Below, one piece after another: positions 7,342 through 41,205 of a stretch of DNA of 41,294 nucleotides. Position 1 is the first letter of the stretch; the number at the start of each line of letters is the position of its first letter. A program made the position numbers and the translations under genes. The DNA is from a virus. Lineage: Duplodnaviria; Heunggongvirae; Uroviricota; Caudoviricetes. The notes under the pieces were generated by a model that was not told where the DNA came from, did no database searches, and saw only the letters and a program-made list of their open reading frames with translations. The stretch is taken from IMG/VR virus record IMGVR_UViG_3300033074_000010, positions 1 to 41,294 of that record; one strand, written 5' to 3'.

Positions 7342-7728
7342 ATGAATCTTAAAGCAACTGTCGTAGCAGGAGCATGTTTCATCATCCTGTTATATGTACA
7401 CGGCTACTTTCAATACCGCAGCGGCTGGAACGAAGGCCGGGCGAATCTCGTTTCGCAGCAACAGCAGAAAGCACAGGCTGAGTTAGCGAAGAAAACACAA
7501 CGGCAGCAGCAGGATGAATCAAAGGCCGCGGCCGCCGACAGCGAAGGCAAGACGAAATCAGAGGTGATTACCCGTGAAGTCGTTAAGTACATTAAAACAC
7601 CTGGTCGCAGCGTGTGCACTTTCGACGATGCTCGCGTCCTGCTCAAGTCCCGCGCCGTCGCAAACGCCAATTCCATCCCCGGATACGACGATGATGCAGC
7701 CACCGTGCAAGCTGGCACCACCAAGTAG
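7342..7728 (+). CDS. i-spanin (Rz-like), putative
   Basis: N-terminal TM helix then charged coiled-coil-like region; contains embedded +1-frame lipoprotein ORF. Confidence 0.55.
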   Translation: MNLKATVVAGACFIILLYVHGYFQYRSGWNEGRANLVSQQQQKAQAELAKKTQRQQQDESKAAAADSEGKTKSEVITREVVKYIKTPGRSVCTFDDARVLLKSRAVANANSIPGYDDDAATVQAGTTK

Positions 7729-7837
7729 CGATGCTGACGAGGATTTAGCTATCGACGTTCAGAACGCCGAATGCGTACGGCAACTGAGACTGAAAGTGTT
7801 CATGTTGCAGGATTACGTGCGGAATATTCTGGAATAG
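7574..7837 (+). CDS. o-spanin (Rz1-like lipoprotein), putative
   Basis: GTG start after GAGGTGA; lipobox LASC; Pro-rich mature region with MMQPP; overlaps the Rz-like ORF in another frame and extends past it. Confidence 0.55.
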   Translation: MKSLSTLKHLVAACALSTMLASCSSPAPSQTPIPSPDTTMMQPPCKLAPPSSDADEDLAIDVQNAECVRQLRLKVFMLQDYVRNILE

Positions 7838-37977: not shown

Positions 37978-38000
37978 TTTAAGATTTTACTGAGTGACTT

Positions 38001-38030
38001 ACGCTGCTACACAGCAGCGTATCATTTTTC
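38001..38030 (+). terminator. rho-independent terminator
   Basis: Stem ACGCTGCT/AGCAGCGT (38001-38020), ACAC loop, then ATCATTTTTC. Confidence 0.6.
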
Positions 38031-39195: not shown

Positions 39196-39398
39196 TGGTG
39201 CAGAGATATGTTGCGTCTTATAACGACTATTATACCCATGAAGACGGGGAATTTGTTACTTACGAAGACTACGTGGAACTCGAGACCGCCGTTATCGCAC
39301 TACTCGTGGATATAAACCGACGCTATCCTGGGGAAGGGTTTAAGTGCCCGTTAATACTTAAACTCGCGGAGATTGTGGAACATGAGCCTCGCAACTGA
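39195..39398 (+). CDS. hypothetical protein (67 aa), paralogue of previous gene
   Basis: ATG 39195 overlapping upstream stop; begins MVQRY, contains YEDYVEL. Confidence 0.5.
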   Translation: MVQRYVASYNDYYTHEDGEFVTYEDYVELETAVIALLVDINRRYPGEGFKCPLILKLAEIVEHEPRN

Positions 39399-39675
39399 CA
39401 TCCTGAAACGAAGCGGCCTTGCGCCGCTGTCACCGAGAGCGAACACCCGAATATACAAGCGCCGTCGTAACGCGCTGTACCCGGAGATACAAGAACGGCG
39501 CAAAGCTATCCGCGCCTGTGGGTTCCAGAACGGGAAGGCCGTGAACCTCGGTGAGTTCAAAACACAAGAGCGCGCCGCAATCGCTAATCGGTTATTTAAT
39601 TACTGGAAGTCGCTGGGGTACGATGATATTCCGACGAAACCACAGAGACGACAATACATCTGGAGACACAAATGA
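39382..39675 (+). CDS. hypothetical basic protein (97 aa)
   Basis: ATG 39382; Arg/Lys-rich; track ORF 39373..39675. Confidence 0.45.
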   Translation: MSLATDILKRSGLAPLSPRANTRIYKRRRNALYPEIQERRKAIRACGFQNGKAVNLGEFKTQERAAIANRLFNYWKSLGYDDIPTKPQRRQYIWRHK

Positions 39676-40109
39676 CTACTATCGCGTTCGACGGAAGGAC
39701 CATGGCCTGTGATACCCGAGTAGCCGGGGACCACATTTACAACACAGATACCAAGATATATGAGAACGAGTTTGTTGTTATCGGTGTGGCGGGTAATGCT
39801 GAAGCTGGTATCCTTTTAGTGAGGGACGATGGCATTTTAGTACCTAAGCATTATGATTTTGATTTCTCTGCTTTGGTGTACGTGAAAGACACGGAAAAGG
39901 TGTATAAAGTCGCATTTTATAAATCATGGGATTGTGCACTTAGTTCAGTTATTCCGATTGCTGATAGCTTTGCCGCCGTCGGCTCTGGTGCACCATATGC
40001 ACTAGCGGCTATGTATTTAGGCCATACAGCGACACGTTCTGTAACAGTAGCCACCCAATTCGACACCAACACCGGCGGCAAGATTATTACCAAACAACTA
40101 TTAGGATAA
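39672..40109 (+). CDS. HslV-like / proteasome-type Ntn-hydrolase peptidase (putative)
   Basis: N-terminus MTTIAFDG (Thr after initiator Met, as in HslV MTTIV); GSGAPYALAA matches HslV GSGGPYAQAA; 145 aa. Confidence 0.55.
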   Translation: MTTIAFDGRTMACDTRVAGDHIYNTDTKIYENEFVVIGVAGNAEAGILLVRDDGILVPKHYDFDFSALVYVKDTEKVYKVAFYKSWDCALSSVIPIADSFAAVGSGAPYALAAMYLGHTATRSVTVATQFDTNTGGKIITKQLLG

Positions 40110-40123
40110 TTCCTACCCGTGGT

Positions 40124-40163
40124 ATCCTCCAGTTACTGCATACTTAATACGCACCTGGAGGAT
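40124..40163 (+). promoter_or_regulatory. inverted repeat sequestering holin ribosome-binding site
   Basis: 9-bp arms ATCCTCCAG (40124-40132) and CTGGAGGAT (40155-40163), 22-nt loop; right arm contains GGAGGA 6 nt before the TTG start at 40169. Confidence 0.4.
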
Positions 40164-40168
40164 TCATC

Positions 40169-40477
40169 TTGGATAAATTTACTGAAACAGTGACGGGGTG
40201 GCTTCTCGCTGCCGCACTGGTCGGTGGATTGGTCGGACTAAGACAACATAAAAAGTCTATATCCGGGCCGATTGACGGACTGGTATTTCTTCTCACCGGC
40301 TTCGCGTGTGCTATTTTCGGCGCGCCTCTTGCCGCTCAATGGTTTGGAATCACTGGTGAGCGCGAGATAGCTGGCCTCGGATTCATCATTGCCATTCTCT
40401 GGATGCCAATCTATTCCCGCCTTTCTGGCATCGTATCTGGCGGCGATATTGCCCGCCCAGGAGGACCTCATGACTGA
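40169..40477 (+). CDS. holin (putative, three TM segments)
   Basis: 102 aa with three hydrophobic helices; TTG start; immediately upstream of endolysin block. Confidence 0.5.
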   Translation: MDKFTETVTGWLLAAALVGGLVGLRQHKKSISGPIDGLVFLLTGFACAIFGAPLAAQWFGITGEREIAGLGFIIAILWMPIYSRLSGIVSGGDIARPGGPHD

Positions 40478-40742
40478 GCTATTCTGGTTTGTCACAATGC
40501 TTTCAATGGGCGCTTCGTCCCTGTTCAACGTGTACAATGAACGCGTGGACGACGGGCTGTTCGGGCGTGTTCTCTATATCCTGACTGCTATCGTCTGTGC
40601 CGCCGGATGTATTCACCTGTTACAGGGCAGCATGTCACCCACGCTGCCTGAGACATTAATCACATTAGTTGCGCTGCGCCAGATTCGTCAGGCGTGGCTG
40701 TCGTACGGAGGACATAAGCGTGTCTCGAAACATTTCAGATAA
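40470..40742 (+). CDS. membrane protein, holin/antiholin-like (putative)
   Basis: ATG 40470 after GGAGGA, overlaps upstream stop; two hydrophobic helices; track ORF 40389..40742. Confidence 0.45.
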   Translation: MTELFWFVTMLSMGASSLFNVYNERVDDGLFGRVLYILTAIVCAAGCIHLLQGSMSPTLPETLITLVALRQIRQAWLSYGGHKRVSKHFR

Positions 40743-41205
40743 TGGATTGCATTTCACTGCTGCATTCGAGGGATTCCGCGGAACTGCGTATCGCGCTACG
40801 CCGAACGAGAAGTACCTGACTATTGGCTACGGGCATTACGGGCCTGACGTAACTCCAGGCAAGACCATCACTCCCGGGCAAGGCCTCCTGTTACTGAATC
40901 GTGATATGGCTAAGGCTGTAGCCGCGGTTGACGCAGCAGCACACCATTCACTGACACAGGCGCAGTTTGATGCTGTGTGCGACCTGGTCTATAACGCTGG
41001 TGCTGGCGTGATTGCGTCTACTACGGGCACGGGCAAGGCCCTGCGCTCAGGAGATATTGCAACACTGCGTGCCAAGCTGGCGCGGTTCATCAATCAGAAC
41101 GGCAAACCGTTACTTGGCCTGCGTCGCCGTACCGCAGGACGTCTGGCATTGTTCGACGGTAAACCGTGGCAGGAGGCTGAGGCTATTGGGAGAGCCGTTA
41201 AATGA
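40720..41205 (+). CDS. endolysin, GH24 lysozyme (P22 gp19 / T4 e-like)
   Basis: Catalytic region EGFRGTAYRATPNEKYLTIGYGHYG; C-terminal LLGLRRRTAGRLALF resembles P22 lysozyme; GTG 40720 7 nt after GGAGGA (track ORF begins TTG 40669). Confidence 0.8.
   Translation: MSRNISDNGLHFTAAFEGFRGTAYRATPNEKYLTIGYGHYGPDVTPGKTITPGQGLLLLNRDMAKAVAAVDAAAHHSLTQAQFDAVCDLVYNAGAGVIASTTGTGKALRSGDIATLRAKLARFINQNGKPLLGLRRRTAGRLALFDGKPWQEAEAIGRAVK

Follow-up and report, generated by a model that had tools for sequence, protein, structure and literature searches.

A proteasome-like Ntn hydrolase of the PPH family encoded directly upstream of the holin genes in a Kagunavirus-related phage genome

What does a 145-residue protein resembling a proteasome-type peptidase do directly in front of the lysis genes of a tailed phage? 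The question is raised by the virus record IMGVR_UViG_3300033074_000010, a 41,294-bp IMG metagenomic contig considered here over its whole length (the window; all coordinates are positions in it). The close relatives of the window are E. coli siphophages that belong to the genus Kagunavirus (Guernseyvirinae). The open reading frame (ORF) in question occupies positions 39672..40109 of the plus strand, stop codon included. A first-pass annotation, made from the sequence alone, had described its product as an HslV-like N-terminal nucleophile (Ntn) hydrolase next to the lysis cassette, and the ORF list bears out the 145-residue frame with its N-terminus MTTIAFDG and its internal GSGAPYALAA. We assign the protein to the proteasome-like Ntn hydrolases of the PPH family, an assignment of family and fold that we hold to be nearly certain. 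Our combined reading, to which we give a probability of about 0.62, is that of an autonomous, probably HslU-independent peptidase with a threonine nucleophile. Its parts differ in strength: that the protein is an active threonine hydrolase we hold to be likely, and independence of HslU we consider an even call.

The family assignment is carried by profiles. The protein matches PHROG 1040 (phrog_1040, "peptidase HslV family") with E = 2e-34; a Pfam search gave no match for it even at E <= 10, and PF00227 was not reached. When the single sequence was searched against the Protein Data Bank (PDB), just the GSGxPYALAA segment of BPH and HslV was matched, weakly (E = 0.12–0.38), and the top match, the carboxymuconolactone decarboxylase 4g9q (E = 0.0055), was set aside as spurious. 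As these matches are weak and confined to a motif, a family profile was required. The likeness of GSGAPYALAA to HslV is nonetheless real, and is the sole part of the resemblance visible without a profile. When 1.84 billion cluster representatives (50% clustering) were searched exhaustively with HMMER, 1565 relatives were found, nearly all of them 135–155 residues long and aligning from residue 1. Among the 150 best representatives, 137 start with Met or Val followed by Thr or Ser, hence without a propeptide. A profile built from 125 family members was then searched against all PDB sequences and matched 176 chains, with a best E of 1.8e-10. The 60 of these that were listed are BPH, HslV or proteasome beta chains only, with no unrelated fold among them.

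Structure prediction points the same way. The AlphaFold2 (AF2) monomer model (predicted local distance difference test, pLDDT, 94.6; predicted template modelling score, pTM, 0.89) has a proteasome-type Ntn fold, as the proposed likeness to HslV and proteasome beta subunits had led one to expect. Fold comparison gave figures of 16.3 for T. maritima HslV (1m4y), 16.2 for Thiobacillus BPH (5ovs) and 16.0 for 20S beta subunits, with lower figures for Anbu (13.1) and Connectase (9.7), and the top ranks in Foldseek were taken by BPH, S. aureus HslV and human beta subunits. As modelled, the protein is equidistant from HslV, BPH and 20S beta. Secondary structure assigned to the model with DSSP comprises one short helix (45–50) between strands 35–41 and 65–71, and an ordered loop of residues 51–64 (39822..39863, plus strand) replaces the remainder of H1 together with all of H2. 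The family consensus of this loop is W-x-x-G-x4-P-x3-D, with Asp at the Trp position in the query protein. H3 (107–115) and H4 (120–130) are kept, and the chain ends after strand 138–142, without S12 or H5. When the profile is aligned with HslV, most of the segment "ELakdwRTD.RvlrrLe" falls in an insertion relative to the PPH family. The model thus depicts a proteasome-beta/HslV fold pared to its beta-sandwich core with a short H1, H3 and H4.

Conservation of the active site was counted over 138 diverged relatives (30–45% identity), in a further alignment (A1) and over 121 close relatives (76–91% identity); all codons given below are on the plus strand. Judged by alignment, all seven proteasome active-site positions are present: T2, D14, K28, G41, S105, D131 and T134. 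Thr2 (codon 39675..39677) is the predicted N-terminal nucleophile, Thr1 after removal of Met. The first-pass annotation had drawn attention to this Thr directly behind the initiator Met, and Thr or Ser is found there in 138/138 diverged relatives (T in 134, S in 4) and Thr in 120 of the 121 close ones. Asp14 (39711..39713), aligned with the Asp in AADSR of beta5, corresponds to proteasome Asp17 and is retained in 137/138 diverged and 121/121 close relatives. Lys28 (39753..39755), aligned with the second Lys of TVKKVIEI in beta5, corresponds to Lys33 and is invariant both in the 138 diverged relatives and in A1. The counterpart of the oxyanion-hole Gly47 is Gly41 (39792..39794), which is Gly in 136 of the 138; here "vaG" aligns with "MAG" of beta5, such that V39-A40-G41 map onto Met45-Ala46-Gly47, Met45 being the S1 pocket residue. 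Gly104-Ser105-Gly106 (39981..39989), equivalent to Gly128-Ser129-Gly130 and aligned with the GSG of HslV, BPH and beta5, form the start of the GSGAPYALAA motif; both glycines are invariant, and position 105 is Ser in 126 and Thr in 9 of the 138. Finally, Asp131-Thr-Asn-Thr134 (40062..40073) aligns with "RDAYSGG" of beta5 and provides the equivalents of Asp166 and Ser169, with D131 in 131/138, T, S or C at position 134 in 138/138, and the following G135 (Gly170) in 130/138.

Positions conserved in at least 90% of the diverged relatives include T2, A5, A12, D14, G41, A102, S105, A110, A113, M114, G117, A123, A127, D131 and G135, and D14, K28, G41, S105 and D131 are each conserved in 91–100% of the family. 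Among the close relatives 29 of the 145 positions are invariant; D14, K28, G41, G104, G106 and D131 stand at 100% and S105 at 118/121. Since the active-site residues are near-invariant while 116/145 positions vary in these close relatives, the active site is clearly under strong purifying selection. The catalytic constellation on which the HslV-like description depended therefore holds up, with Thr, Asp, Lys, Gly, Ser and Asp all conserved on alignment with beta5.

The features of the protein fit those of PPH as described by Fuchs et al. 2021 (PMC8665760). PPH proteins are ~140 residues long, occur in Caudovirales, prophages and their hosts, possess the catalytic triad and Gly47, and have neither a propeptide nor S12/H5 (PMC8665760). 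Helix H2 is missing, a trait otherwise peculiar to RPC, and BPH, not HslV, is given the central place in the group as the source of the PPH radiation (PMC8665760). The query protein shares the length of ~140 residues, the Thr after Met, the lack of a propeptide, the triad with Gly47 and the lack of H2, S12 and H5. It also shares the setting, the carriers of PPH being proteobacterial tailed phages and prophages and the query lying in a Kagunavirus-like genome. Compared with the wider PPH family, the Guernseyvirinae clade is distinguished by a 7-residue insertion (81–87), by Asp in place of Trp52 and by a fixed place upstream of the holin.

The original "HslV-like Ntn hydrolase" label stands in its broad sense, since profile and fold both indicate a phage hydrolase of the proteasome/HslV type; it does not stand for HslV in the strict sense, for which the equivalog models, PF00227 and H2 all fail. 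The query scores 13.0 bits with the NCBIfam HslV equivalog TIGR03692 (cut-off 157.75) and 12.5 with NF003964 (cut-off 137), and so falls short of both by >120 bits. HslV (ClpQ) and the query have in common the N-terminal MTTI with Thr1 bared by Met removal and the GSGxPYAxAA motif. In contrast to HslV, the query is ~30 residues shorter at 145 residues, as the first-pass annotation had noted, and its model lacks H2 and has H1 cut to 6 residues; it is also phage-borne, dispensable and without an hslU neighbour. BPH (5ovs, 5ovt, 5ovu) resembles the query in having no known unfoldase partner, but is ~200 residues long, keeps H1 and H2, has a long acidic pore loop and is chromosomal in bacteria. 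The 20S beta subunits (e.g. beta5) are at least 200 residues long, with a propeptide and autocatalytic maturation, H2 and H5, and alpha rings, all of which are missing in the query. This kind of gene was described in 2021 and is routinely annotated, hence the observation is not new; existing GenBank labels are "peptidase HslV family", "protease", "ATP-dependent protease" and "proteasome subunit". The labels "ATP-dependent protease" and "HslV" overstate the case, and "Proteasome-like Ntn hydrolase, PPH family" is more accurate. PADLOC returned no defence family for the query protein at E <= 1, and a defence-system component was rejected on this null result.

In the mechanism that we propose, host methionine aminopeptidase would remove Met1, as it does in E. 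coli HslV with its identical MTTI start. The freed amino group and the hydroxyl of the Thr would form the catalytic base–nucleophile pair, making autoprocessing unneeded. The Thr nucleophile would work with Lys28 and Asp14, Gly41 would form the oxyanion hole, and Val39 at the S1-pocket position suggests a preference for a hydrophobic P1 residue. The resulting threonine peptidase would probably assemble into rings via the retained H3/H4 surface; these two helices are rich in invariant small residues and probably give the ring–ring contacts, as in HslV and the proteasome. Docking of HslU has probably been lost, as little is left of the apical H1/H2 surface that in HslV is turned towards HslU, and the gene is not accompanied by one for an unfoldase. 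The enzyme would then act without an unfoldase on peptides and on unfolded or specific proteins, with possible targets among host proteins that may include defence factors. The roles put forward in the first-pass annotation, a remodelling of host proteolysis or the processing of a phage or defence protein, are speculative.

Several points weigh against this proposal. The whole case for independence of HslU consists of the H2 helix missing from the model and the lack of a co-travelling unfoldase. Our literature searches found no functional study or activity assay of any PPH. BPH, a relative of solved structure, reportedly binds epoxomicin and is not known to have shown activity on standard substrates, and intact catalytic residues accordingly do not guarantee a conventional protease. 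Furthermore, the HMMER alignment sets Met1 of the family opposite Thr1 of beta5, a one-residue register ambiguity in the TTT run, so that the case for T2 as the nucleophile is made by its conservation in 97% of the diverged relatives and by analogy with the MTTI of HslV. Lastly, position 52, a Trp in 78% of the family, is Asp in the query protein.

Homologues are present in 351 phage records and 264 IMG/VR stretches, the IMG/VR scan for PPH loci having used a 12-sequence sub-alignment. Some of the matches are unusual in length or number. The closest viral predicted structure, BFVD A0A1W6DWU9 (58% identity over 131 columns), is annotated with 263 residues, twice the PPH length, either as a fusion or through an over-extended start. 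Several phage proteins of 275–279 residues (e.g. in Aeromonas phage 4L372XY) may represent the RPC type, extended at the C-terminus, and IMGVR_UViG_3300047469_000099 has PPH matches near both ends, which could reflect terminal redundancy or two copies. In the literature, HslV-like ORFs without HslU have been noted for a jumbo phage, and two HslV-like ORFs have been reported from a Salmonella jumbo phage (PMC7823757). For Erwinia phage RAY, a preprint surveying the localisation of phage proteins includes an accessory protein of the "HslVU protease family". A further lead, JSS1_004 (PMC12345140), proved irrelevant: the paper concerns a T7-like kinase, and hslV there is a host gene.

The genomic surroundings of PPH vary between lineages. 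Over the PPH region, the window best matches phage EC3-1, whose PPH protein is 90% identical. In EC3-1 (Kagunavirus) and in wksl3 (Jerseyvirus) PPH is directly upstream of holin–holin–endolysin, while the Klebsiella myophage BUCT_49532 (Jedunavirus) carries it on the opposite strand, as one of an island of three genes within the tail module. The description "next to the lysis cassette" is therefore true of the window and within Guernseyvirinae, and does not extend to other lineages such as Jedunavirus. For a broader view, 80 IMG/VR loci with diverse PPH genes were fetched, and 64 loci in 38 PPH groups were clustered by their neighbours. No conserved PPH neighbour was found across the 38 groups, the commonest being the large terminase (12/38), and in some phages PPH is placed among head–tail connector genes. 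Nor did an AAA+ unfoldase recur in the 38 groups, and none is located near PPH in the window.

Relatives without the gene are informative. The type phage K1G has the same upstream ORF, hairpin and lysis cassette as the window, and lacks exactly the PPH ORF; K1H and several others likewise lack PPH, as judged by coverage. At the K1G junction (L085:820-992) the upstream ORF has its own TAA stop, and ~12 nt, TTATTAAGATAA, resemble the last PPH codons, CTATTAGGATAA. Short CAAA and AAA(T/C)AA repeats flank the PPH indel between the window and K1G. The junction is very clean, and the repeats suggest that PPH was deleted in the lineage of K1G and not inserted in the window. PPH was counted in ~34 Escherichia/Kagunavirus records against ~115 with a related large terminase, and in 266 Salmonella phages against 355; these ratios are approximate, and the terminase counts may include phages outside Guernseyvirinae. 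On this comparative evidence, PPH reads as an optional, moron-like accessory gene of Guernseyvirinae siphophages. As K1G has the same cassette and does without PPH, the gene can hardly be essential for lysis or for the maturation of heads. Furthermore, a gene that is dispensable and genome-mobile in the manner of a moron is likelier to have a host-directed or fitness role than one in lysis or virion assembly.

The immediate context of PPH places it at the end of a transcription unit. No in-frame start exists upstream of 39672, since the ORF list begins at the first start codon after a stop, and a GGAG Shine-Dalgarno sequence read from the sequence (39662..39665, plus strand) stands 6 nt before the ATG. 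This ATG overlaps the TGA of the preceding ORF (ATGA at 39672–39675), and the same 4-nt overlap is annotated in EC3-1; an arrangement of this kind suggests translational coupling of PPH to the upstream gene. That gene (39382..39675, plus strand) encodes a basic 97-residue protein, identified by its PHROG match as phrog_9632; a Pfam search with it gave no match. Homologues of phrog_9632 precede PPH solely in relatives at 80% identity (Kagunavirus), and the ORF is kept in the PPH-less K1G, where it adjoins the holin directly. As a partner for PPH it was rejected, its co-occurrence with PPH being confined to those Kagunavirus relatives. The 97-residue protein is very basic, and its segment GFQNGKAVNLGEFKTQERAAIANRLF recalls AP2-type DNA-binding domains, a likeness backed by no tool.

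Downstream, the next gene is a holin (phrog_2359 by PHROG match; 40169–40477, TTG start), which confirms the placement of PPH just upstream of a holin. A second holin (phrog_2508, again by PHROG match; 40470–40742) and an endolysin with a Pfam Phage_lysozyme match (about 40669–41205, plus strand) follow. The 59-nt spacer between PPH and the first holin contains an RNA hairpin (40124..40163, plus strand; stem UCCUCCAG / CUGGAGGA) with a minimum free energy of -23.8 kcal/mol, compared to -14.6 +/- 2.5 for shuffled sequences (z = -3.7). The 3' arm of the hairpin holds the GGAGG Shine-Dalgarno sequence of the holin, and the element is 100% identical in EC3-1 and in the PPH-less K1G. It may control holin translation or read-through. 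At the same place Jerseyvirus wksl3 has a canonical intrinsic terminator, with a 12-bp GC-rich stem followed by UUUUUU. A hairpin or terminator between PPH and the holin means that PPH closes the upstream operon and lies outside the lysis cassette; it is the last gene of a small-gene operon preceding holin–holin–endolysin. Further upstream, a terminator-like hairpin at 38000–38021 (plus strand; 9-bp stem, then a T-rich tail) is situated ~150 nt before the series of small ORFs on the same strand of which PPH is the last. This hairpin may mark the start of the transcription unit containing PPH; no strong sigma-70-like promoter was found above the shuffled expectation.

How do other explanations fare against the autonomous threonine peptidase that we favour? 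PPH rings could dock onto host HslU, or mix with host HslV, and thereby redirect or poison host HslUV during infection. The E. coli host does possess HslU, and the N-terminal MTTI and the GSGxPYALAA motif of PPH are nearly identical to those of HslV. Phages moreover carry a V-like subunit and never the U subunit, in our neighbour survey as well as in the jumbo phage case (PMC7823757). We nevertheless consider such a takeover unlikely: H2, part of the HslU-facing apical surface in HslVU structures, is missing, the HslV equivalog models give 13 bits against cut-offs of 137–158, PPH is just as similar to BPH, for which no unfoldase is known, and the PPH family is described as radiating from BPH and not HslV (PMC8665760). 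The chemistry itself might be different, PPH being a non-degradative Ntn enzyme that performs a single specific cleavage, a transpeptidation or ligation (as the archaeal connectase does) or the hydrolysis of a non-protein amide. That BPH is said, in the 2018 study, to be without demonstrated protease activity would be in line with this. However, the connectase S3–S4 insertion is absent, strands 29–31 and 35–41 being joined by a 3-residue turn, and PPH retains equivalents of Ser129, Asp166 and Ser169, the supporting residues characteristic of proteolytic beta subunits; a non-degradative enzyme is therefore quite improbable.

A virion or lysis factor, which would mature a head, scaffold or tail protein or process a holin, antiholin or endolysin, has the position of the gene in its favour: PPH is immediately upstream of holin–holin–endolysin in Kagunavirus and Jerseyvirus, and its commonest neighbours elsewhere are large terminase, portal and head–tail connector genes. 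The head module of this phage, in addition, has a scaffold and no recognisable prohead protease. These associations are outweighed by the phages K1G, K1H and many other Kagunaviruses, which share the lysis cassette and the head genes and lack PPH at a clean junction; by the terminator or hairpin that parts PPH from the holin; and by a location that varies with lineage, including the opposite strand inside a tail module. Prohead proteases also have a different fold, of the herpesvirus-protease or ClpP type, and a protease is generally dispensable for heads that are built with a scaffold and a minor head protein like SPP1 gp7. A prohead protease in particular was rejected, given that PPH is ~33 kb from the head genes (window coordinates), has the proteasome fold and is missing in K1G, which has the same type of head module. 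By this genome comparison the natural PPH-less relatives largely refute a virion or lysis role, and we rate it as very improbable. Equally improbable is a catalytically inert remnant, in which a degraded HslV-like gene would persist as a structural decoy or without function. The gene is dispensable in nature, truncated relative to HslV and has Asp for the Trp52 of its family, as a remnant might. Yet its active-site residues are essentially invariant against 116/145 varying positions in close relatives, the active site is conserved across the family down to ~30% identity, the family comprises 1565 representatives at 50% clustering, and the AF2 model is compact and very confident.

Two further observations concern the lysis genes. 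As mechanically called, the endolysin ORF has a TTG start, 178 residues and a 74-nt overlap with the second holin; in relatives the endolysin is annotated with 162 residues (489 nt in EC3-1 and wksl3), and for this reason the true start is probably ~48 nt downstream. A spanin pair is found within the head module, between a Hoc-like decoration gene and the scaffold gene. The Rz-like i-spanin (7342–7728, plus strand; phrog_2536, 3e-56) has an N-terminal transmembrane segment, and an overlapping +1-frame ORF within 7574–7837 (plus strand) contains the lipoprotein box TMLASCSSP, typical of an Rz1-type o-spanin. As the spanins are ~33 kb (window coordinates) from holin–holin–endolysin, the lysis genes are split between two loci.

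A more daring version of the autonomous peptidase, which we regard as rather unlikely, would have PPH form an unfoldase-free "mini-proteasome" ring that is switched on just before lysis and destroys a specific host protein. Candidate targets would be a defence effector, or a substrate of the HslVU type that controls envelope or stress responses. If this were true, the presence or absence of PPH among near-identical Kagunaviruses would decide host range or burst on particular strains, and it would be the first function assigned to any viral proteasome homologue. The locus adds no new kind of element. What it offers is a tractable E. coli system for the role of a 145-residue phage proteasome core, with an E. 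coli host, a natural polymorphism (the window contig and EC3-1 with PPH, K1G and K1H without), a one-residue catalytic knock-out (T2A) and a defined position at the end of the pre-lysis operon.

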